DNA from: Desulfomicrobium sp.
GTDB taxonomy: Bacteria; Desulfobacterota; Desulfovibrionia; Desulfovibrionales; Desulfomicrobiaceae
Length of the DNA: 64,000 nt
NCBI GenBank assembly: GCA_040768745.1
Contig: JAXGMI010000001.1
Coordinates: 1,056,001 to 1,120,000, forward strand
Direction: 5' to 3'
Shown: positions 29,433 to 39,094 of the stretch, in pieces
How positions within the stretch are numbered: the stretch's first letter is position 1
Layout of the letters: the number at the start of each line of letters is the position of its first letter
The notes under the pieces: generated by a model
Database searches by the model: none
What the model was told of the DNA's origin: nothing
What the model saw: the letters and a program-made list of their open reading frames with translations, nothing else
Translations under genes and position numbers: made by a program

Positions 29433-30449
29433 ATGAACAACACAGACAAGATCCTCGTGGCCGGAGCGGCCGGCATGGTCGGCAGCGCCCTGGTCCGCGC
29501 CCTGTTGGCCCAGGGCTTCGAAAACATCGTCGGCACCACCCACCGCAAGGTGCCGGATTTCGGCCCCAAGGCCAGGGGCCGGGTGCGGCTGGAACGCCTG
29601 GACCTCATGGACCAGTCCGCAGTGCGCGCCTTCCTGGAGCAGGAGCGGCCCGACCCGGTTTTCCTGGCCGCGGCCAAGGTCGGCGGCATCCACGCCAACA
29701 ACACCTGTCCGGCGGACTTCATCCACGCCAACCTGGCCATGCAGACGAACGTCATCCACAGCGCCTATAAGTCCGGCGTGCAGCGTCTCCTGTTCCTGGG
29801 CTCCAGCTGCATCTATCCCCGTGATTGCCCGCAGCCCATGAAGGAGGAATACCTGCTGACCGGACCCCTGGAGGCCACGAACCGCCCCTACGCCGTGGCC
29901 AAGATCGCGGGCATCGAGATGTGCTGGGCCTACAACCGCCAGTACGGCACACGATATCTGGCGGTCATGCCCACGAATCTCTACGGCCCGGGCGACAACT
30001 ACGACCTGCACACCAGCCACGTCCTGCCCGCCCTGATCCGCAAGGCGCACGAGGCCAGGGTGCGGGGGGACTCGCATTTTGTGGTCTGGGGGACGGGCAC
30101 GCCGCGCCGCGAATTCCTGTTCAGCGACGACCTGGCCGGGGCCTGCGCATTCCTGATGACCGGGGCCGGGAAGACCGAGGCGCTGTTCAACGACCACGAA
30201 CCGCCCCTGGTCAACATCGGCTGCGGCGAGGACGTGACCATCGCCGAACTGGGGCGGATGGTGGCGGAGGTTGTGGGTTTTGAGGGCGGGATCGTGTTCG
30301 ATCCCGGCAAGCCCGATGGGACGCCGCAGAAGCTTCTCGATGTTTCGAGGATGAGGGGCATGGGCTGGCGGCCGAGCGTTGCGTTGCCGGAGGGGATCGG
30401 GTTGGCGTATGGGGATTATGTTGGGAAGTGGCTGCCGGAGTGTTCCTGA
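29433..30449 (+). CDS. fcl: GDP-L-fucose synthase
   Basis: GAAGMVGSA, AAKVGGIHAN, LGSSCIYP, YAVAK, PTNLYGPGDNY, KPDGTPQK. Confidence 0.95.
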   Translation: MNNTDKILVAGAAGMVGSALVRALLAQGFENIVGTTHRKVPDFGPKARGRVRLERLDLMDQSAVRAFLEQERPDPVFLAAAKVGGIHANNTCPADFIHANLAMQTNVIHSAYKSGVQRLLFLGSSCIYPRDCPQPMKEEYLLTGPLEATNRPYAVAKIAGIEMCWAYNRQYGTRYLAVMPTNLYGPGDNYDLHTSHVLPALIRKAHEARVRGDSHFVVWGTGTPRREFLFSDDLAGACAFLMTGAGKTEALFNDHEPPLVNIGCGEDVTIAELGRMVAEVVGFEGGIVFDPGKPDGTPQKLLDVSRMRGMGWRPSVALPEGIGLAYGDYVGKWLPECS

Positions 30450-30847
30450 TGGAAACAGAGAGCATGGTGCACGCTATCAGGCAAACCCTGACCGATCCGG
30501 ATATCAGGTTGGCCATTCTGTTCGGCTCGCAGGCGTCCGGAAAAACCCATGCCGGTTCGGATGCCGACGTGGCCGTGGTGCTGGACGGCGAGATGTCTCC
30601 AACTCGCCGGGGAGAACTGAGCGCACGGTTGTCTGAGGCGCTGGGATGCGAGGTCGATGTCGCCGATCTGCGCGAAGCCCAGGGCGAGTTTCTGGCGCAG
30701 ATCGTCCTTGGCGGGGTGGTGGCGGTAAAGCGGGACACTTCCCTTCTGGCCGAACTCGCCATTCGGGCGCTGGGATACCGGGCAGACTTGCGGCCGATGG
30801 TGCTCCGGGCGCTCAAGGACAAGGTGGGGAGAAGCCTGCATGGATGA
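30449..30847 (+). CDS. MNT antitoxin (MntA-like)
   Basis: LFGSQASGKTHAGSDAD (GS-X10-DXD); start overlaps the fcl stop. Confidence 0.85.
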   Translation: METESMVHAIRQTLTDPDIRLAILFGSQASGKTHAGSDADVAVVLDGEMSPTRRGELSARLSEALGCEVDVADLREAQGEFLAQIVLGGVVAVKRDTSLLAELAIRALGYRADLRPMVLRALKDKVGRSLHG

Positions 30848-31271
30848 AATGCTCATTTTGCGGAAAATGGAATCCCTTGGCAGATGCGTGGACAGAATCC
30901 GCTCCAAGCGCGGCTTCACGCACGAAGAACTGCTTCGAAACCATGATCTGCAGGATATCTTGAGCGTCAATCTCCAACGCGCGGTGCAACTGAGTGTGGA
31001 CATCGCCTTACACATGCTCTCCGATCTCTCCGGAACGCTTCCGGACACGATGGGGGCGGCCTTCATCGCGCTACGAGAACACGGAGTCATTCCAGAGCGC
31101 ACGGCCAACGCCCTTCGCAGCAGCGTCGGGCTTCGCAATGTGGCCGTGCACGATTATGTCGCCGTGAATTGGCAGATCGTTCAGGATGTTGTTGACGGAC
31201 ATGTGGAAGTGTTCGCGGATTTCATGCGTGAAGTTGAGGGCTGGCTCGGTAGGCGCGGTGTGAGGAAGTGA
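30840..31271 (+). CDS. HEPN toxin (DUF86/HepT-like RNase)
   Basis: GLRNVAVHDY (R-X4-H-X-Y); overlaps the upstream MNT. Confidence 0.88.
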   Translation: MDEMLILRKMESLGRCVDRIRSKRGFTHEELLRNHDLQDILSVNLQRAVQLSVDIALHMLSDLSGTLPDTMGAAFIALREHGVIPERTANALRSSVGLRNVAVHDYVAVNWQIVQDVVDGHVEVFADFMREVEGWLGRRGVRK

Positions 31272-31291
31272 GCCCGGCGCGAGGAGGGGAC

Positions 31292-31597
31292 ATGCGTATC
31301 ACGGAAACAGAGCGTCGAGTGTTGCGCGACGAGGCACAAAAAGCTTTCGGGGCAGACTCCAAGGTTTTTCTTTTCGGTTCACGTGCGGATGACGCCCGGC
31401 GTGGCGGGGACATCGACCTGCTGGTGGAGACCGGCAAGACAGGGCACGACGCCATTTTCGAAGCCCAGCTCCGTTTTTTGGCCAGGGTCAAGTTGGCTCT
31501 TGGAGAACGAAAAATCGACGTGCTCGTGGACTACCCGGATCGCACGTGCCGTCCTGAAATTTTGCGTATCGCACGGGATCAGGGGATACAGCTGTGA
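31292..31597 (+). CDS. MNT (copy 1 of 'MNT-A'); cognate HEPN deleted
   Basis: LFGSRADDARRGGDID; near-identical to 34549-34854. Confidence 0.85.
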   Translation: MRITETERRVLRDEAQKAFGADSKVFLFGSRADDARRGGDIDLLVETGKTGHDAIFEAQLRFLARVKLALGERKIDVLVDYPDRTCRPEILRIARDQGIQL

Positions 31598-31626
31598 TTT
31601 CGATGAACAGTGAAGTCAATCAATGA
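31594..31626 (+). pseudogene. 5' stub of the HEPN-A gene
   Basis: GTGATTTCGATGAACAGTGAAGTCAAT matches the first 27 nt of 34851 (GTGATTTCGGAAAACAGTGATGTCAAT), then a stop follows. Confidence 0.7.
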
Positions 31627-31630
31627 AAAA

Positions 31631-31687
31631 ATGGACGGGATTGGTTTTTAAAATGAAAGAATCCTCAAAGGGAGACGTGGTCCCATG
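31631..31687 (+). repeat. Cassette-junction repeat, copy 1
   Basis: ATGGACGGGATTGGTTTTTAAAATGAAAGAATCCTCAAAGGGAGACGTGGTCCCATG; 50/57 identical to 36730-36786 by manual alignment. Confidence 0.85.
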
Positions 31688-31689
31688 CT

Positions 31690-31748
31690 TGGGTTGGCGC
31701 CCAACCGTTGCGTTATCGGAGGGGATCGGGTTGGCGTATGGGGATTAT
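31690..31748 (+). repeat. Duplicated 3'-terminal fragment of fcl
   Basis: 53/59 identical to 30361-30419; the last 32 nt are identical. Confidence 0.9.
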
Positions 31749-31794
31749 CCGGAAAATTTCAGGTAAGGCGCGCACCAGGTCTGCGGGAGGGGTA

Positions 31795-32094
31795 ATGCGA
31801 CTGAGTCCTGGACAGAAGTCATTGCTGGTAAGGATGGTCAGGAGACATCTTGGTCCAAAGTCGGAAGTGTACCTTTTTGGGTCGCGTCTTGATGATACGC
31901 TCAAAGGCGGGGATGTTGACATCCTGGTCGATGTCGAAAAGCCAGTGCCGCGGATTACGCATGCACGCCTTGTGCTGGATCTTGAGGAGGCACTCGGACT
32001 GCCTGTGGATGTGTCGTTTCGAGTCAAGGGGGAGAATCTCTCGGCGTTTCAAAAAATGATTGGTGCCAATGCGAAACGGTTGGAGGTGGCATGA
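31795..32094 (+). CDS. MNT antitoxin
   Basis: YLFGSRLDDTLKGGDVD; RBS GGAGG. Confidence 0.85.
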   Translation: MRLSPGQKSLLVRMVRRHLGPKSEVYLFGSRLDDTLKGGDVDILVDVEKPVPRITHARLVLDLEEALGLPVDVSFRVKGENLSAFQKMIGANAKRLEVA

Positions 32095-32645
32095 GCGGTT
32101 CCTTGCGGGCAGGAGAAGAATATCTGGCCGAACTCCTGGAGGCGATCCAGCGGTGCACGTACTTTCTTGACGGATCAATTGGTCGGCTGACGTGGCCGCT
32201 CGACCCGGAGTTCCTGGAAAGTCGAAAGATGGATGTCGAGGTGTTTGAGACGGTGTCCGCCATAAACGAGCGTTTCGCGAAGCTTCAAGACACGCTCGGC
32301 GCGGCAATGCGGTGCGCGGCGGTCTTGTCGGGCGAGCAGGTTTCTATATTTTTGCGTGTTTTGACGTTCTATGAAAAAATCGGAGTGCTTGAATCAGTGC
32401 GGCAATGGCAGGAATGTCGAACTGCACGCAATCTCGCCGCACACGATTACGATACCAACTACGAGGCCATTGCCGATCATTTCAACACGCTGCATGCCAT
32501 GACCCCTTTTTTGTATGGCACGGCATGGCGCTTTGCGGAGTACTGTCAGAATACGCTAGGTGTTTTCCCGAAGTCCAGGGACTTTGAACCCGGATTTACC
32601 CAAGTGGCGAGACCGTTCGGAGAACAACGCAGTCGAGATGCGTAA
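32091..32645 (+). CDS. HEPN-domain protein (putative toxin)
   Basis: ERFAKLQDTLG, RNLAAHDY; ATGA overlap with the MNT gene. Confidence 0.8.
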   Translation: MSGSLRAGEEYLAELLEAIQRCTYFLDGSIGRLTWPLDPEFLESRKMDVEVFETVSAINERFAKLQDTLGAAMRCAAVLSGEQVSIFLRVLTFYEKIGVLESVRQWQECRTARNLAAHDYDTNYEAIADHFNTLHAMTPFLYGTAWRFAEYCQNTLGVFPKSRDFEPGFTQVARPFGEQRSRDA

Positions 32646-32718
32646 AGAAAAGGTATCGTGTATTGGTGTCAAATGGGGATGGCAATTGGGTAGTTTTTAG
32701 AGCTTAACTGTTTGGAAT

Positions 32719-32765
32719 TGTATATAAAAATATAGTATTGTTAAAAGAAGACCTGATCCCGTTCC
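32719..32765 (+). repeat. Cassette-junction repeat, copy 2 (AT-rich variant)
   Basis: TGTATATAAAAATATAGTATTGTTAAAAGAAGACCTGATCCCGTTCC; resembles 36222-36267. Confidence 0.65.
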
Positions 32766-32770
32766 CTGAT

Positions 32771-32851
32771 TCCATCAGATCGATAATGAGGAGCTACTCG
32801 CTCACATTGGCCGGGTTGGCGAAAGTATTTTTCGTAGGCAAGGGTCGCGGG
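32771..32851 (+). pseudogene. Orphan 3' fragment of the MNT domain encoded at 36084-36164
   Basis: Encodes HQIDNEELLAHIGRVGESIFRR versus HHIDNEELLAHIGRVGKSIFRR; about 67/81 nt identical. Confidence 0.85.
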
Positions 32852-32880
32852 TGGGAAGACTGTGACAACGATGAACTCGT

Positions 32881-34275
32881 ATGAACGAAACTGAACTCTT
32901 TGCCATCATTGCCAGAGGCGAGGACAGCCGCCATCAATTCAAGCGAGATTTCAGCAATATCGACTCGCTGGCTGCGGAACTGATCGCTTTTTCGAATACA
33001 AGCGGGGGGTTGCTGTTGGTTGGCATCGACGATGACGGACATGTCTGCGGCTTGGACGCTACGGATGTGTCCAGGCTTAATCAACTGCTGTCGAATGCTT
33101 CCTCGCAGAACGTTCGTCCTCCCATTAATCCGACAACCAGCAATGTCATGACCGGAAGTGGCCTTGTCGTGGTGATTGATGTAGCCGAGGGCTTGAACAA
33201 ACCCTACATGGATGCCCTGGGCCGGATTTGGGTCAAAAGTGGTGCGGACAAGCGCCATTTGACCGCACGAGAAGAGATGCAGCGACTGTTTCAATCCTCC
33301 GGGCTCGTGTATGCGGACGAGGTCCCGGTTCGGCCGGCCACATTCACCGATCTCGATCAGGACGCCTTTGGCAAATATTTTGGCAAGCGCTATCAGCGAT
33401 CTGTCGAAAGTACCGGCCTGGCCCTGCCGCAACTGCTTGCCAACCTTAATTTGGCAGGCGACGGCGCACCCAACCTGGCGGCCCTGATGCTGTTCGGCAA
33501 GTCGCCGCATGTGTTTAAGCCATCCTTCATTGTCAAATCAGTCGCTTTTCCTGGCACGGTGTTACATGACAATCGCTACTTGGACAGCGAGGACATAGAC
33601 GGCAATCTGTTCGAGCAGTATCGTCGCTCCATGGCCTTTATCAAACGCAATCTGCGTCACGTGCAGGGCGATCAGGGCTTCAACAGCCCTGGATTATTGG
33701 AGATACCTGAGGCGGTTTTCGAAGAGTTGCTCGTCAACGCCTTGGTGCATCGTGATTATTTTCTGAGCGCCCCTATTCGGCTGCTGATTTTTTCCGATCG
33801 GGTGGAGATCATCAGTCCTGGGCATCTGCCCAACCATCTGGATTCCAACAAAATCCGCTACGGCATTTCAAACCTTCGAAATCCCGTCCTGGCCTCCCAT
33901 GCTTTCCACATGTTGCCCTATCGTGGACTTGGAAGCGGCATTCCGCGAGCCTTGGCGAGTTGGCCTGATATCGAGTTGATCGAAGATCGCGCAGGCAATC
34001 AATTCAAAGCTGTCGTCCACCGGCCGGACAGAGACAACGCACAGCCAGAGTCGCAGCCAGAGTCGCAGCCAGAGTCGCTGGAGAACTCCGTGTTGCGTAT
34101 TCTGGCAGAAAGGCCGGCCGGCAAGGCCGAGATTTCAGTTCGGCTTGGGCAGAAGCGCGTTTCGGGGCAGCTCAACAAAGTCATGCGCGCGTTGCTTGAC
34201 GCTGGTGTGATTGAACACACCATTCCGGAGAAGCCGACAAGTCGCCTGCAAAAGTATCGGATTAGTTCAAACTGA
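32881..34275 (+). CDS. AlbA_2 (Schlafen-like) + HATPase_c_4 (RecG-C-like) + HTH protein
   Basis: GEDSRHQFK, IAFSNTSGGLLLVGIDDDG, ELLVNALVHRDY, RNPVLA, GSGIPR, TIPEKPTSRLQKY. Confidence 0.82.
   Translation: MNETELFAIIARGEDSRHQFKRDFSNIDSLAAELIAFSNTSGGLLLVGIDDDGHVCGLDATDVSRLNQLLSNASSQNVRPPINPTTSNVMTGSGLVVVIDVAEGLNKPYMDALGRIWVKSGADKRHLTAREEMQRLFQSSGLVYADEVPVRPATFTDLDQDAFGKYFGKRYQRSVESTGLALPQLLANLNLAGDGAPNLAALMLFGKSPHVFKPSFIVKSVAFPGTVLHDNRYLDSEDIDGNLFEQYRRSMAFIKRNLRHVQGDQGFNSPGLLEIPEAVFEELLVNALVHRDYFLSAPIRLLIFSDRVEIISPGHLPNHLDSNKIRYGISNLRNPVLASHAFHMLPYRGLGSGIPRALASWPDIELIEDRAGNQFKAVVHRPDRDNAQPESQPESQPESLENSVLRILAERPAGKAEISVRLGQKRVSGQLNKVMRALLDAGVIEHTIPEKPTSRLQKYRISSN
34042..34077 (+). repeat. In-frame 12-bp tandem repeat (CAGCCAGAGTCG)x3
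   Basis: Encodes QPES x3 in the linker before the HTH. Confidence 0.9.
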
Positions 34276-34362
34276 AGAGGATATCAGAAGAGAAGAAATT
34301 TACGCTTCATTATCTTGGGCGGGTTGGGAAGACTGTTTTCCGCCGACAAGGGTAGCGAGAGA

Positions 34363-34415
34363 GGATTGGTTTTGGAAATGGAAGAATCGTCAAAGGAAGA
34401 CGTGCCCCCCATGTC
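34363..34415 (+). repeat. Cassette-junction repeat, copy 3
   Basis: GGATTGGTTTTGGAAATGGAAGAATCGTCAAAGGAAGACGTGCCCCCCATGTC. Confidence 0.85.
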
Positions 34416-34548
34416 TGGCGGCGGGCCGGAGGCGGATGGAAATCCTGGAAGCCTTCGTGAAAGGCAAGCAGAGTGTCTGGCATGACGGATGACAGGATAT
34501 CCAAAGCAGGCGCGGTATGAGGAAGTGAGCCCGGCACGAGGAGAGGAC

Positions 34549-34854
34549 ATGCGTATCACGGAAACAGAGCGTCGAGTGTTGCGCGACGAGGCACAAAAAG
34601 CTTTCGGGGCAGACTCCAAGGTTTTTCTTTTCGGTTCACGAGTGGAGGATGCTCTGCGGGGTGGAGACATCGATCTGTTGGTGGAGACTGGAAAGATGGG
34701 GCATGCCGCCATTTTCGAAGCTCAACTCCATTTTTTGGCCCGGGTCAAGTTGGCCCTTGGGGAACAAAAAATCGACGTGCTTGTGGATTACCCGGATCGC
34801 ACGAGCCGTCCTGAAATTTTGCGCATCGCACGGGCTCAGGGGGTGCAGTTGTGA
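34549..34854 (+). CDS. MNT (copy 2 of 'MNT-A')
   Basis: LFGSRVEDALRGGDID; block 34508-34877 duplicates 31251-31620. Confidence 0.87.
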   Translation: MRITETERRVLRDEAQKAFGADSKVFLFGSRVEDALRGGDIDLLVETGKMGHAAIFEAQLHFLARVKLALGEQKIDVLVDYPDRTSRPEILRIARAQGVQL

Positions 34855-35327
34855 TTTCGGAAAACAGTGATGTCAATGCATTGCGTTTCCATGACGCATG
34901 GAAGGAATGTTGTACGCATCTGACCCACGCCCGGCATGCCCTCAAATCAATGGAGGCGCATTTGCCGCTTGATGGGCAAAAATTATCGAGCCTTGATTTA
35001 GAGTCCATTCAAGACATCGATCAGCTTGTGTATCGATATTCCAAGCTGCAAGACAGCATGGGTAGCAAGCTTTTTCCAGCGCTTCTTAAAATTCTTATGG
35101 AGCCGTTGGAAGACAGCCCCATGTTGGACAAGCTCAATAAGCTGGAGAAACTAGGGGTTCTCCCCAGCGTTCAGCGTTGGCAGGAACTCCGGGAAATTCG
35201 CAACAAATTTGCACATGACTATCCCGAAGGAGACGAGATGAAGGCCGCGGTATTGAATGCTGCATGCTCCAGCATCGAGGAACTGGCCGAAGTCTTGGAT
35301 CGTGTGGGCAAGGCAGGTGGAGTGTGA
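34851..35327 (+). CDS. HEPN-domain protein ('HEPN-A', putative toxin)
   Basis: DQLVYRYSKLQDSMG, RNKFAHDY; GTGA overlap with MNT-A. Confidence 0.82.
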   Translation: MISENSDVNALRFHDAWKECCTHLTHARHALKSMEAHLPLDGQKLSSLDLESIQDIDQLVYRYSKLQDSMGSKLFPALLKILMEPLEDSPMLDKLNKLEKLGVLPSVQRWQELREIRNKFAHDYPEGDEMKAAVLNAACSSIEELAEVLDRVGKAGGV

Positions 35328-35419
35328 GGTGTTCTAAGCGGTTCAAACTTTATTCAGAATGATAGGTGCCAAAAAAAGAGGTTTTTTTTGAAGGTATCTG
35401 GTCGGCAAGGGAGCACGTC

Positions 35420-36154
35420 ATGACGGGAAACGGTGCGGATGTCCGGTGGAAGCAACGGTTTGCGAATTTCAAGAAGGCCTTGTCCCAGTTGAAAAAATTT
35501 GTGGAAAAGGGCCAGCTGAACGAACTGGAAGAACAGGGGGCGATTCAAGCCTTTGAATATACGTACGAACTGGCCTGGAATGTCATGAAAGACTTTTTGG
35601 AACACCAGGGTCAGACAGATATCTACGGATCTAGGGACGCGATCCGTAAAGCCTTCCAACTTGGCCTGATCACTGACGGCGACAAGTGGATGGACGCCTA
35701 TAAGAGCAGGACCAAAACCTCGCATACCTACAATGAGGAAACAGCCAGGGAGATGGTCGATGCCATCCTGGGCGTATATCATGGGCTTTTTGAGGCCCTG
35801 CAGGAGAAGATGGAACCTTTGCTTGACCGTGACCGGGAAGCGGCATCCGGCAATCGTTTTGGCATCGAGAGCGAGATGTTTGAACGGATCGTTGACGTGT
35901 TGCGCGACAATCCATTGGTCGAGGAAGTGATTCTCTACGGATCGCGAGCCAAGGGTGTGCAGAAATCCGGTTCTGATATCGACTTGGTGCTCAAAGGGAA
36001 AGATCTCGCTCTGCAGGACTTGAATCGGATCAGTCTGGCTCTGGATGATCTGCTCCTGCCGTATACCTTTGATCTTTCGCTTTTCCATCACATCGACAAT
36101 GAGGAACTGCTTGCTCACATTGGACGGGTCGGGAAAAGCATTTTTCGCAGGTAG
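35420..36154 (+). CDS. HEPN (HI0074-like substrate-binding subunit) fused to MNT
   Basis: RWKQRFANF, IQAFEYTYELAW, RTKTSHTY, then LYGSRAKGVQKSGSDID and LLLPYTFDL, all in one frame. Confidence 0.85.
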   Translation: MTGNGADVRWKQRFANFKKALSQLKKFVEKGQLNELEEQGAIQAFEYTYELAWNVMKDFLEHQGQTDIYGSRDAIRKAFQLGLITDGDKWMDAYKSRTKTSHTYNEETAREMVDAILGVYHGLFEALQEKMEPLLDRDREAASGNRFGIESEMFERIVDVLRDNPLVEEVILYGSRAKGVQKSGSDIDLVLKGKDLALQDLNRISLALDDLLLPYTFDLSLFHHIDNEELLAHIGRVGKSIFRR

Positions 36155-36221
36155 GGGTAGCGGGTAACGAGTGGAAAGGTCGATGGATTGCAGGATCATG
36201 AGATCTAATTGAGATGTATTA

Positions 36222-36267
36222 TGTATAAAATGGAAGTGTCGTCAAAAGAAGACTTGATAACCTTGTC
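36222..36267 (+). repeat. Cassette-junction repeat, copy 4
   Basis: TGTATAAAATGGAAGTGTCGTCAAAAGAAGACTTGATAACCTTGTC. Confidence 0.75.
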
Positions 36268-36272
36268 TTCTC

Positions 36273-36630
36273 TGGGCAAAAATTATCGAGCCTTGATTTA
36301 GAGTCCATTCAAGACATCGATCAGCTTGTGTATCGATATTCCGAGCTGCAAGACAGCATGGGTAGCAAGCTTTTTCCAGCGCTTCTCAAAGTTCTTATGG
36401 AGCCGTTGGAAGAGAGCCCCATGTTGGACAAGCTCAATAAGCTGGAGAAACTCGGGGTTCTCCCCAGCGTTCAGCGTTGGCAGAAAATCCGGGAAATTCG
36501 CAACAAATTTGCATATGACTATCCCGAAGGAGACGAGATGAAGGCCGCGGTATTGAATGCTGCATGTTCCAGCGTCGAAGAACTGGTCGAAGTCTTGGAT
36601 CATGTAGGCAAGGAAGGTGGAGTGTTATAG
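36273..36630 (+). pseudogene. 5'-truncated duplicate of HEPN-A
   Basis: 36273-36625 aligns without gaps to 34973-35325 (offset 1300) with few substitutions; lacks the first ~40 codons; RNKFAH changed to RNKFAY. Confidence 0.88.
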
Positions 36631-36729
36631 GCGAAAAACTTTAGTCGGATGATGCGAGCAAGGAATGCGTCCGGAAGAGGCTACGGTTGGTGAGTTTTGC
36701 CAAGGTCAAAATGTTTTTCAGTGAAAGAA

Positions 36730-36788
36730 ATGAACGGGATTGGTTTTTAAAATGGAAAAATCGTCAAAGGAAGACTTGGCCCCATGTC
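36730..36788 (+). repeat. Cassette-junction repeat, copy 5
   Basis: ATGAACGGGATTGGTTTTTAAAATGGAAAAATCGTCAAAGGAAGACTTGGCCCCATGTC. Confidence 0.85.
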
Positions 36789-36829
36789 CCTGGACATCGG
36801 TATAGGCTGTTTTCGTTTCGGAGTAATGC

Positions 36830-37594
36830 ATGTTGTGCAGGATATGTCATTCTAGGCTAAAATTCAAATATGCTGCTAATAACTCGCGTGGCGAAAATGG
36901 AAATGTTTTTTATTGTAAAAAATGCGATGCTTTTTTTGTTGAAGAAAGTGAGTTTGATTATAGATGTCATGATGTGGTAAAGTACTATGAAGATCACGAA
37001 ATTTATATAAAAAATAGGTATGAAAAGTTTTTTTCTTTTGTTGAGCGATTTGTTTCGCCGTCAAGTTTTCTGGATATTGGATCGGGGATGGGATATTCGC
37101 TGGAAGTAGCGCAACGTCGCGGTTGGAGTGCGCATGGTATAGAGCCAAATGCTATCCTGGCACAAAATTGTATTGATCGAGGACTTTCAGTTCAAAATAG
37201 CAAATTTTGTTTTGGGGAAAACTCGTGTTTTCGATTGATTTCAATGGATAATGTTCTAGAGCACGTCCGTAATCCAGTTGAGTTTGTTTATGACGCTTCA
37301 AGGTGTCTCGAAAAGGGCGGTATGCTTGTGATCGCAGTGCCTCCGGTTGATTGGCTAAGAAAAGTTGTTTCTTCTTTTGCTTTGGTGCGTGAGAATGTGA
37401 CTATTCCTCAATTAAATATTTTTTACGATATGACTCAGCATATTAATTTCTTTAGCAGAAAGTCTATTTATCAGATTGCAAATGAATTAAATTTGACTAT
37501 TTTCTCACATCGATATCATCATAGTTTGTTATATAATAATGTGATTTCGCGGTTTGTTAAGATAAACGATGGGATATTTTTCTTGGCTAAATGA
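36830..37594 (+). CDS. Class I SAM-dependent methyltransferase with N-terminal Cys motifs
   Basis: CRIC...CKKC, LDIGSGMG, NVLEHV. Confidence 0.85.
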   Translation: MLCRICHSRLKFKYAANNSRGENGNVFYCKKCDAFFVEESEFDYRCHDVVKYYEDHEIYIKNRYEKFFSFVERFVSPSSFLDIGSGMGYSLEVAQRRGWSAHGIEPNAILAQNCIDRGLSVQNSKFCFGENSCFRLISMDNVLEHVRNPVEFVYDASRCLEKGGMLVIAVPPVDWLRKVVSSFALVRENVTIPQLNIFYDMTQHINFFSRKSIYQIANELNLTIFSHRYHHSLLYNNVISRFVKINDGIFFLAK

Positions 37595-37660
37595 ATGAAG
37601 TGTGGTGCTTATGTCGAGACATGTGATCGATAAACGGTTGTTTTGTGTTGGATTCTTGCT

Positions 37661-39094
37661 GTGACATTAATTAATGCGCTGAAGTGGTCATTCTTGGGTG
37701 AGTTGGCGTCAAAAGCAATTCAACCGCTTGTGTTTATCGTTTTGGCCCGACTGCTGACACCTGAAGATTTTGGTGTGATGACAGCCGCGCTCATGGTTAT
37801 CGGTTTTTCGCAGATTTTTTGGGAAGCTGGAATGGGCAAGGCTTTGATTCAGCGCCAGACAAATATTGAGGAAGCCGCTAATGCAGCTTTTTGGATCAAT
37901 GTCATACTTGGTGTTGTTATTTCTAATGCTTTGTATTTTTCTGCTAATTTTGTTGCGCAAACTTTTTTTCAAGATGGAAGAGTCGAGACGGTGTTGCAAG
38001 TAATGACTTTGCAGATTTTTTTTGGATCCGTTTCTTCGGTGCATACAGCTCTTTTGCAAAGAAATATGGATTTTAAAAAATTATTTTGGGTTAGGTTTGT
38101 AACGGTATGTCTGCCAGGTATCGCTTCGATCCCGCTGGCCTGGTACGGATGGGGGCATTGGGCGTTGGTTGCTGGTACTTTGGCTGGTCAGCTAGCGCAG
38201 ATGATCATGTTGTGGAGGATGAGCTATTGGCGGCCAAGCATGGCAGTCAATATCGGGGTAACAAGTGAAATGGCCAAGTTTGGTGGCTGGGTAGGCGCAA
38301 CTGGACTGCTGACATGGTTTTATGCTTGGGCAGATTCCTTGGTGGTCGGCCATTACCTCGGTAGTCATGACCTCGGACTTTTTCGTACAGGCTGTCAATT
38401 TCCAGCTATCATTTTTGCCCTATTCTTTGGGCCTATTGTACCCGTGCTTTACAGTCAGATCTCTCGTATTGGCCATGCAAAAGATAGAATGAAGGAGATA
38501 GCTGAATTTGCAATCGGAATGCTAACAATTGTCTCCATTCCCGTTGCAGCATTCCTTTTTATATATTCAGAGCATATCGAAGCTCTAATATTTGGAGATA
38601 AATGGAATGGAGTTGGCGTAGTGCTCGGAGTGATGGCATTGATGCATGGGTTTTCATGGATTGTAGGCATGAATGGAGAGTTTTACCGTGCGACAGGGAA
38701 CCCCTCTTGCGAAACAATCGTTACGGCCGGTGCGATGGGTGTGTACTTGCTAGTATATTTAATGATCATTCATCAAGGATTAAGAGTTTTTGTATGGGCC
38801 AGGATGGCCTTGGCAATAGGAGCGCTAGTTCTCCATTTAATTGTACTAAATAAAATTTTCAACGTGAATCTGCTTTTAGTAGTGCGTCGCATTGTGTTCA
38901 TCTCAATGATAAGTGCTTTTGCAATATTTTATGTTAAAGAATTTTCAATATGTATTTTTGTAGACAGATGGGCTCAATTTATAATTGGATGTTTGATGTC
39001 AGCTACTGCGGTATTGTTTTCGATTTATATATTAGAGAGGAAAAAAATATGTTTGCAAATTACTACGATGGTCAGAAAAAATGAAACTAAATAG
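37661..39094 (+). CDS. Wzx-type oligosaccharide flippase
   Basis: LARLLTPEDFG, GMGKALIQ, many transmembrane segments (MOP/PST family). Confidence 0.88.
   Translation: MTLINALKWSFLGELASKAIQPLVFIVLARLLTPEDFGVMTAALMVIGFSQIFWEAGMGKALIQRQTNIEEAANAAFWINVILGVVISNALYFSANFVAQTFFQDGRVETVLQVMTLQIFFGSVSSVHTALLQRNMDFKKLFWVRFVTVCLPGIASIPLAWYGWGHWALVAGTLAGQLAQMIMLWRMSYWRPSMAVNIGVTSEMAKFGGWVGATGLLTWFYAWADSLVVGHYLGSHDLGLFRTGCQFPAIIFALFFGPIVPVLYSQISRIGHAKDRMKEIAEFAIGMLTIVSIPVAAFLFIYSEHIEALIFGDKWNGVGVVLGVMALMHGFSWIVGMNGEFYRATGNPSCETIVTAGAMGVYLLVYLMIIHQGLRVFVWARMALAIGALVLHLIVLNKIFNVNLLLVVRRIVFISMISAFAIFYVKEFSICIFVDRWAQFIIGCLMSATAVLFSIYILERKKICLQITTMVRKNETK

Follow-up and report, generated by a model that had tools for sequence, protein, structure and literature searches.

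Organization of the fcl locus

The DNA stretch considered here (the window) is 64 kb long and corresponds to C1:1056001-1120000 of a Desulfomicrobium genome denoted G000 (3.09 Mb, contigs named C1-C3); positions given without a contig name count from base 1 of the window. Between fcl and a group of glycan genes it contains five copies of a short site, S1 to S5, separated by toxin-antitoxin (TA) and defence-type genes, which are stacked inside a surface-glycan locus variable between strains (Table 1). We find that S marks the 3' end of successive units and that the DNA behind S repeatedly copies nearby DNA, mostly from upstream and with an arbitrary start. We assign S to the end-repeats of TIRYT-type Y1 transposase genes and suggest that such an enzyme may have built the units.

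Table 1. Features of the fcl locus and loci of the second transposase family (window positions unless a contig is named)
Feature	Position	Strand	Evidence or remarks
fcl, GDP-fucose synthase-like short-chain dehydrogenase/reductase, conserved left edge of the variable interval	29433..30449	+	Pfam Epimerase 4.6e-69
Unit 1 cargo: MNT (open reading frame 30428-30847, ATG 30449), HepT toxin (30840-31271), second MNT (31268-31597)	30428..31597	+	Pfam Polbeta/NTP_transf_2, HepT-like
S1, solo copy of a putative transposon-end repeat	31626..31692	+	Core 31660-31676; 32.4 bits
Orphan fcl tail, start of unit 2	31687..31766	+	31687-31748 is 89% identical to 30358-30419 in fcl; C-terminus differs, PENFR*
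Unit 2 cargo: MNT (31708-32094) and 184-aa partner (32091-32645)	31708..32645	+	First gene: Pfam NTP_transf_2 3.2e-9
S2, AT-rich variant	32717..32769	+	Core 32736-32752; 30.7 bits
Orphan MNT tail FHQIDNEELLAHIGRVGESIFRR..., start of unit 3	32770..32865	+	32770-32852 is 83% identical to 36083-36165; translation
Unit 3 cargo: Schlafen/AlbA_2 + HATPase_c_4 + Fic-like_C protein	32881..34275	+	Pfam
S3	34351..34416	+	Core 34385-34401; 33.6 bits
Probable decayed HepT-like tail (..EILEAFVKGKQSVWHDG*, then ..RRGMRK*), start of unit 4	34417..34550	+	34508-34550 resembles the HepT end from 31251; rest by eye
Unit 4 cargo: MNT (34489-34854), HEPN-like gene with RNKFAH (34851-35327), NTase_sub_bind + MNT fusion (35366-36154)	34489..36154	+	Pfam, NCBIfam
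S4, AT-rich variant	36218..36272	+	Core 36237-36253; 31.0 bits
Orphan 3' three-quarters of HEPN-like gene, start of unit 5	36273..36630	+	36273-36572 is 97% identical to 34973-35272; copy continues to a stop at 36628-36630 (translation)
S5, final site ahead of the glycan genes	36725..36793	+	Core 36759-36775; 39.6 bits
Glycan genes (methyltransferase, flippase), right flank	36830..39094	+	Pfam Methyltransf_23, Polysacc_synt_3
Genes of the TIR-B family (289-aa Y1 paralogue)	G000 C1 429631-430501, C1 119036-119887, C2 641019-641889, C3 260918-262926		Between inverted ..TTCAAGATTCAAGATCTGACCCC repeats (reverse complement GGGGTCAG)

The sites share a core of approximately TCGTCAAAGGAAGACnTGACCCC. 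The 12-nt core TCAAARGRAGAC (1 mismatch) occurs five times in the window, always on the + strand (31665, 32741, 34390, 36242 and 36764), against 0.82 copies expected by chance, and none of 100 shuffles gave five. In the repeat search the copies fall into a longer group, D3 (31626-31687, 34351-34412 and 36725-36786, 69-87% identity), and an AT-rich variant group, D4 (32717-32757 and 36218-36258). An earlier reading of the letters, below called the original prediction, had placed five co-oriented sites here, and the core search bears this out. It had also set them apart from CRISPR by their irregular spacing; we likewise reject a CRISPR array, given spacings of 1076, 1649, 1852 and 522 nt, copies that are 61-87% alike and the genes between them.

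Most of the cargo belongs to known TA families. An MNT gene together with a HEPN RNase carrying Rx4H, the composition of type VII HEPN-MNT modules, is present at 30428-31271 in unit 1 (Pfam Polbeta/NTP_transf_2 and HepT-like), and the fusion gene of unit 4 matches NCBIfam HI0074 with 102.7 bits. The HEPN-like gene of unit 4 contains RNKFAH, matches no family and is termed HEPN-like only for this reason; the 184-aa partner in unit 2 has no Pfam or NCBIfam match. Behind the second MNT gene of unit 1, the first ~30 nt of the HEPN-like gene remain at 31594-31625, as they do in the relative G019, and the rest of this copy seems to have been lost by deletion between short CAGTGAA repeats.

Each of units 2 to 5 opens with a gene fragment directly behind a site. 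The fragment behind S1 encodes LGWRPTVALSEGIGLAYGDY, which equals 18 of 20 residues of the fcl C-terminus, and FHQIDNEELLAHIGRVGESIFRR behind S2 matches the end of the fused HEPN-MNT gene. Hence the orphan tails of fcl, of an MNT gene and of the HEPN-like gene, all noticed before, are confirmed by the repeat search and translations, and the order of gene, cargo, site and tail of the same gene is indeed found twice, for fcl and for the HEPN-like gene. A fourth duplicate in the repeat search (31251-31550 versus 34508-34807, 90%) overlaps the fragment behind S3, which is probably a decayed HepT-like tail, a weak assignment. RNKFAH of the intact HEPN-like gene has become RNKFAY in the orphan copy, the presumed catalytic His of Rx4H being gone. 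Two other views of the fragments were dropped. They do not behave as variable repeats of a diversity-generating retroelement, as the differences between copies, judged by eye, are not limited to adenines; and a small open reading frame MKESSKGDVVPC..., which links S1 in frame to the fcl tail, loses its frame at S4 and is without a start codon at S2.

Stacked repeats of this kind might arise when repeats are collapsed or mischained during assembly, and G000 is a metagenome-assembled genome in which no listed contig covers the S4 joint or the whole stretch. For comparison we used contigs of another sample from that study (X2) and, outside the study, of X3 (a sludge metagenome) and X4. The X2 contigs span 31354-31746 and 31719-34574 without a difference, and an X4 contig does so for 31550-32979, so that S1, the fcl tail, S2 and the MNT tail, and with X2 also S3, are covered by identical sequence. 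Because these contigs agree without a difference, the joints at S1, S2 and S3 are not an assembly artefact of the G000 record. Like joints also occur in other genomes of the genus, and we give an artefact hardly any credence as an explanation of the array.

Identity of the repeated site

When only the five window sites are used as a profile, G000 yields eight further weak matches, two of which are inverted and ~1 kb apart (C1 898111-898141 and 899131-899152; E 0.077 and 0.099). With the sequence-only profile R1, made from alignment A1 and applied at E<=0.05, these become a minus copy at C1 898111-898140 and a plus copy at 899128-899163, lying on either side of a Y1 transposase gene. Of 25 genomes of the genus, 18 contain S by R1, and G000 has ten copies, five of these in the window array; the profile was trained partly on S copies from the relatives, whose scores are therefore not independent of the training. 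The site recurs both in G000 and in the genus, in support of the original prediction.

The gene between the inverted cores (C1 898122-899102) is single-copy and lies on the same contig, ~157 kb upstream. Its 327-aa product matches Pfam Y1_Tnp (2.3e-9) and Bac_DnaA_C (3e-14) and scores 72.7 bits against NCBIfam REP_Tyr_transpos, which does not reach the cut-off of 80. It contains HYH at residues 60-62 and RYIHRNP at 118-124, which we take to be the HUH motif and the tyrosine motif, respectively. A PDB sequence search with the protein gives a match to the DnaA-like domain only. The gene lies ~20 kb from the cumulative GC-skew minimum of C1 (20-kb bins; C1 ~898-920 kb), the presumed replication origin.

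Orthologues in the genus are 60-73% identical and adjoin the S repeat. Their 5' flank contains the inverted core ..GTCAAARGAAGAYTTGACCCC in all eight genomes examined. On the 3' side, G000, G003 and G023 show a clear forward core that overlies the stop codon. G001 and G015 have a degenerate one and G009 and G019 a different one, and in G014 the contig ends there. At 14 of 19 loci of distant homologues (Bipolaricaulota, Thermotogae, Pseudoalteromonas and others) the flanking inverted repeats finish in ..AGAC/GGTCTGACC, in keeping with the motif GGGGWSAS known from the literature.

This arrangement corresponds to a described class. According to the accessible text of Di Nocera et al. 2013 (PMC3733652), a TIRYT or TIRtron is a RAYT-like gene between terminal inverted repeats (TIRs) that carry GGGGWSAS, and its solo repeats form families of moderate abundance, single or grouped. 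Subclass 2.1.2 of Quentin et al. 2018 is described, in the part of that paper available to us, as having a Bac_DnaA_C-like domain (PMC6006769). The gene-flanking copies of S, taken as the reverse complement of the core end, read GGGGTCAA and agree with GGGGWSAS at 7/8; the window copies deviate further. We assign the Y1 gene between the S cores to the TIRYT/TIRtron class, subclass 2.1.2, and each S to the solo copies of a TIRYT-type terminal inverted repeat. The system had been presented as a candidate for an undescribed one, with identity to a known insertion sequence end named as what would refute this; as far as the site itself is concerned, the original prediction does not hold. Its guess of a specific HUH/Y1 enzyme, made with the gene out of sight, proves apt, as inverted cores flank a Y1_Tnp + Bac_DnaA_C gene.

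The gene and the repeat tend to occur together: S is found in 13 of the 14 genus genomes with a TIRYT-like match and in 5 of the 11 without one, these genomes being kin and not independent. G000 also contains a second TIRtron family, TIR-B, whose 289-aa Y1 protein is ~42% identical to the TIRYT protein and present in 4-5 copies; its repeat end GGGGTCAG agrees with GGGGWSAS at 8/8. Solo TIR-B repeats stand beside S in arrays of the relatives; one in G018 (L029) follows a RelE-like orphan tail.

The joint behind S

For the analysis of joints, the 170 nt behind each S core were searched for a nearby same-strand duplicate, with 52 S anchors in the loci analysed and, as controls, six anchor sets shifted by 300-700 nt (308 anchors). 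A duplicate is present behind 17 of the 52 S anchors and 54 of the 308 shifted ones. Its best start lies 11-20 nt past the GAC of the core at 10 of the 17 S anchors, versus 2 of the 54 controls. The S-derived lengths at these ten joints, which come from G000, G001, G015, G018 and G023, are 10, 12, 14, 15, 17, 17, 17, 18, 18 and 19 nt, and the window joints at S1, S2 and S4 lie 10, 17 and 19 nt past GAC. The distance of 2-5 nt between site and fragment given before agrees with this if ...CTGG is regarded as the approximate end of the site. A gene and S shared between genomes tell the same: for Fic-S in G013, G014, G018 and G024 homology ends ~13-16 nt past the core. The joints thus point to a defined 3' edge of S that recurs as a junction, with an arbitrary partner point. 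Of the fixed breakpoint foreseen earlier, the narrow zone just 3' of the core stands; it is a zone of ~10 nt rather than one bond.

In 8 of the 10 joints the parent of the copied DNA lies upstream, which gives the structure [p..S][p..S], where p is the upstream breakpoint. Beside the transposase gene the parent is directly upstream in 6 of 7 joints, at offsets of -126 to -2547 nt. Two G023 joints with a common duplicated piece may represent a single event. Among the copied DNA are three gene tails in the window, 3' fragments of the transposase gene (G001, G018 and G023), a portion of an antisense ParE/RHH module (G001 and G015) and a pilin 5' fragment (G023). The claim that gene 3' ends specifically follow the site therefore fails in the relatives; "gene tails" appear behind S because the upstream break is arbitrary and the genes are co-oriented with S.

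At L069 (G023 C3 ~238-240 kb) the TIRYT locus contains two extra transposase 3' fragments with 87-89% amino acid identity to the full copy, and a truncated type IV pilin-like 5' fragment is wedged between opposed S copies. A quick scan of L093, L086 and L136 (Pseudoalteromonas) and L114 (Neptuniibacter) shows co-oriented TIRYT end-repeats 90-420 nt apart, with duplicates that start 13-24 nt past GAC, so that the signature recurs in another phylum-level lineage.

Two explanations of these joints can be weighed here. S might chiefly be a regulatory element of glycan and TA operons (promoter, terminator or RNA) maintained by selection, with the tails incidental. Several G000 copies do lie 30-40 nt upstream of start codons, and at S2 and S4 minus-strand sigma-70-like matches (32717-32744 and 36218-36245, 10/12 positions) have the reverse-complemented core in place of the -35 box and point back into cargo genes. 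However, the + strand of S1-S5 yields no promoter- or terminator-like match except a weak one starting just past the S4 core, and Rfam gives none at gathering thresholds in the window and none at E<=1 in ten related loci. Homology between genomes lies upstream of S and ends just after it, the opposite of what a promoter tied to its gene would leave, and a regulatory role does not account for the concentration of duplicate starts in a 10-nt zone. We consider it very improbable that regulation is the main role of S.

Alternatively, transfer and recombination might have set whole alleles, each with full gene, cargo and S, side by side; deletions from the 3' edge of S would then have taken away the 5' parts of the following gene and left the tails. 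Transposase-anchored adjacent deletions are known from other insertion sequences, all units begin with a 5'-truncated piece immediately after S, and orphan copies do decay, as the change of the Rx4H His to Tyr illustrates. This scheme takes two steps where one suffices, though, and none of the loci examined shows an intermediate in which S is followed by a complete second copy of a gene. The directly upstream parents beside the transposase gene are moreover the signature of a duplication joint. S-anchored deletion is therefore an improbable origin of the array in our judgement.

The fcl locus in related genomes

Besides G000, S lies downstream of fcl in G019, G024, G008 and G007, and in G001 and G018 an S match occurs ~1.8 and 2.7 kb beyond the fcl match. 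The order is fcl-MNT-HepT-MNT-S-wecB-like in G019, fcl-MNT-HEPN-like-S in G024 and fcl-fused HEPN-MNT-S in G008; in G007, a composite, the tails of a Schlafen gene and of an MNT gene precede S. The relatives thus carry single units between fcl and S, and the window has every one of these modules stacked in series. Its unit 1 cargo is collinear with G019 at 83%, its unit 4 cargo with G024 (87%) and G008 (85%), and 36273-36787 with the HEPN-like gene and S of G024. Further cassettes between direct S copies carry Phd-PIN (G007) and Fic (G014), and G024 has three S copies. The idea that the Phd-PIN cassette stands behind different repeats in G007 and G024 was dropped, as the two left joints may be homologous.

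The C-terminus of Fcl differs in every species of the genus past about residue 330 (..GIGLAYGDF/Y, then unrelated residues; 30400-30449 in the window, loci L149-L170), and the last few fcl codons appear to have been replaced repeatedly. This divergence marks the left edge of the variable interval. In G024, the ~19 codons behind S (..VLKDTCDWYLREQRSADGA*) extend over the beginning of the following gene and are similar to canonical fcl ends, such as ..AYRWFLENE.. of a paralogue; by eye, they look like the old fcl tail displaced by the unit. An fcl paralogue at L168 (G015 C1 ~2.875 Mb) has the canonical ..AYRWFLD.. end and an S-like copy right after its stop. The expected clustering of the site in glycan loci applies only to the fcl locus; other copies adjoin the transposase gene and TA genes.

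The X3 contigs, which align at 92% likeness, so that their joints may stem from other organisms or from repeats, show different orders. The HEPN-like gene leads directly to S5 and the fusion-S4 unit is absent (a skip of 1300 nt, 35314 to 36615), S3 is followed by the MNT1 region, and behind an S4 variant come the final 270 nt of the Schlafen gene.

Proposed mechanism of unit formation

The reading towards which we lean, by a modest degree, is that the transposase cuts just 3' of S and connects the end with an upstream point that is arbitrary, and that the resulting [fragment + cargo + S] units accumulate. The accessible text on E. coli TnpAREP reports single-stranded DNA cleavage with only a CT requirement and strand transfer (Ton-Hoang et al. 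2012, PMC3333891), and proposes tandem addition of bacterial interspersed mosaic elements (BIMEs) as well as circle models; the route that we outline for TIRYT follows the logic of these models.

Step 1: The TIRYT protein would act in trans on single-stranded DNA and cut the top strand just 3' of S. As an analogy only, IS608 is cut ~10 nt 3' of its right-end hairpin.

Step 2: The cut end would be joined to a 5' end made at a poorly specified place upstream. The product might be a single-stranded circle [fragment + cargo + S], or the unit might be added directly in tandem by primer extension.

Step 3: Re-entry of units would take place where another S is cut, or through homologous crossover within the duplicated piece. 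The observed orders fit both routes. Integration by crossover in the 3' end of a resident gene, as originally proposed, is thus possible and is not needed, since exchange at S gives identical orders.

Step 4: TA and defence modules would thereby pile up, each unit opening with a remnant of the upstream DNA of its donor. The integron-like accretion foreseen for this locus is what the units stacked behind S display.

A number of observations weigh against this mechanism. The joint is spread over ~10 nt and is not a single bond, and the upstream side of the ten joints has no shared motif, which fits microhomology or template switching as well. All five window copies differ by 1-3 bases from the TIR terminus TTGACCCC (S5 reads GGGGCCAA); they may be decayed and the array a fossil. 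A possible hairpin, GTCAA/TTGAC, is 86.8% paired over 57 aligned copies but without covariation (91 of 500 shuffles equal it), and single-stranded DNA folds of the five sites (-1.1 to -5.8 kcal/mol, z -1.9 to +1.5) are no better than those of shuffles. G007 has a composite fcl-S array with no TIRYT gene found by this query at E<=1e-20, and the TIRYT copy of G018 contains an internal stop. Clean tandem joints are found mostly beside the transposase gene, and in the window unit 1 is not the source from which units 2-4 were copied, which requires the assumption that they entered from other strains. The X3 joints have the limit given above.

Some of these points would be expected if only host processes were at work. 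S would then be fragile or fork-stalling, perhaps protein-bound or prone to pausing, its 3' side would be joined to upstream DNA by nascent-strand template switching or microhomology-mediated illegitimate recombination, homologous recombination between fcl, S and the duplicated genes would shuffle alleles among strains, and the transposase would be a bystander. We think this unlikely. It accommodates the scatter of the joints, several of which permit 2-4 nt of ambiguous overlap, the imperfect window copies and the G007 array; the 1300-nt skip in X3 is what recombination between the 97% HEPN-like copies should give. It gives no reason, however, for the hot spot to coincide exactly with the end-repeat of an HUH nuclease gene, or for the signature to cluster beside the TIRYT gene in G001, G015, G018 and G023. 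Furthermore, there is no strong hairpin to stall forks, and the break falls past the repeat rather than at its foot.

Cutting by the TIRYT enzyme can be extended to a broader proposal, which we put forward tentatively and with more doubt than confidence. TIRYT enzymes and their solo end-repeats may constitute an integron-independent gene-capture platform that makes and collects TA and defence cassettes: the HUH nuclease would cut beyond S and ligate the end to almost any upstream point, and circular cassettes would re-enter at any other S. The Pseudoalteromonas and Neptuniibacter arrays hint that such a platform might work across phyla.

The arrays have the look of footprints left in vivo by such an enzyme, with a defined cut zone, an arbitrary second break and stacked units. 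To our knowledge, it is unsettled how the cassettes of integrons first arise. If the link to the enzyme is true, the arrays represent a second, mechanistically distinct route to cassette arrays, one that could explain the first making of cassettes, and they offer a concrete substrate and a predicted cut site for bench work. If the link is false, they are still a clear case of a short repeat that acts as a recombination joint and structures TA islands.

Comparison with known systems

The site and the enzyme class are already known. The locus shares with TIRYT/TIRtron elements a Y1 HUH gene related to RAYTs, a C-terminal Bac_DnaA_C-like domain, flanking terminal inverted repeats that approach GGGGWSAS and scattered solo repeats at moderate copy number. 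The published descriptions, in the parts accessible to us, cover repeats and genes and contain no arrays of gene-bearing units, break zone, orphan fragments or TA cargo (PMC3733652, PMC6006769); Quentin et al. state, in the same portion of their text, that there are no REP-like sequences near subclass 2.1 genes (PMC6006769). Among titles and abstracts, with subscription papers and the supplements of PMC3733652 outside the search, none describes gene cassettes bounded by RAYT/TIRYT repeats, a break zone 3' of the repeat or unit starts made of orphan fragments. The accessible text of the two papers that name TIRYT (PMC3733652, PMC6006769) yielded no experimental test of the function of these widespread, domesticated Y1 transposases, and RAYT work, as far as it is represented in the available part of PMC3333891, is limited to in vitro cutting of repetitive extragenic palindromic sequences (REPs) and models of repeat spread.

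REP/BIME systems with their RAYTs resemble the S system in having a single-copy domesticated Y1 enzyme between inverted repeat copies that acts in trans, with cleavage of low specificity and strand transfer, and the tandem-unit addition proposed for them, as set out in the accessible text, could yield joints of S with upstream DNA (PMC3333891). REPs, however, are GTAG-tagged hairpins present in hundreds of copies and arranged in BIME units of ~100 nt. S has ~10 copies per genome (10 matches in G000 at E<=0.05), no GTAG tag and no supported hairpin, and its units carry whole genes and measure 0.4-1.9 kb. With the REP_Tyr_transpos score below its cut-off, we do not class the gene as a REPtron.

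Peel-and-paste transposition of IS200/IS605 elements uses an enzyme of the same fold family, and the cut at a short distance 3' of the end and the single-stranded circle are borrowed from that model. The top strands of S1-S5 are, as there, on the inferred lagging-strand template; other copies on C1 are mixed and the five are not independent, and we do not use this as support. In IS200/IS605 elements both ends are defined, the subterminal hairpins are not inverted, and the target is a specific tetranucleotide. S units, in contrast, have one defined end and an arbitrary one; the ends of the S element are inverted repeats and the upstream breaks of the ten joints share no motif, so that an IS200/IS605 element was rejected.

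With integron arrays the window has in common co-oriented, promoterless-looking units that each end in a recombination site, frequent TA modules and recombination that presumably takes place in single-stranded form. It differs in that no tyrosine recombinase is nearby (Phage_integrase has 16 matches in G000, none of them within the window) and that S is not an attC-like imperfect palindrome, as the folds of the five sites indicate. An attC array is excluded on both counts, in accordance with the original prediction, which had found neither an integrase in the window nor an attC-like palindrome in the site. Moreover, S units begin with arbitrary fragments of donor genes, and integron cassettes do not.

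IS91/ISCR elements and Helitrons also mobilise adjacent genes by means of one fixed and one variable end. Their enzymes are Y2/Rep HUH proteins that capture DNA past a missed terminator, and a search for Y2_Tnp gave no match either in G000 or in the control genomes, which makes this negative uninformative.

Orphan toxin tails of the rhs, cdiA and mafB loci have a similar layout: a gene, its immunity gene or cargo, a 3' fragment of that gene and then more cargo, left by successive acquisitions. There displacement is driven by homology in the conserved core of the gene, and no dedicated site bounds a unit. Here, unlike in these loci, each unit is delimited by a putative transposon end, and the genes that supplied the fragments are unrelated.

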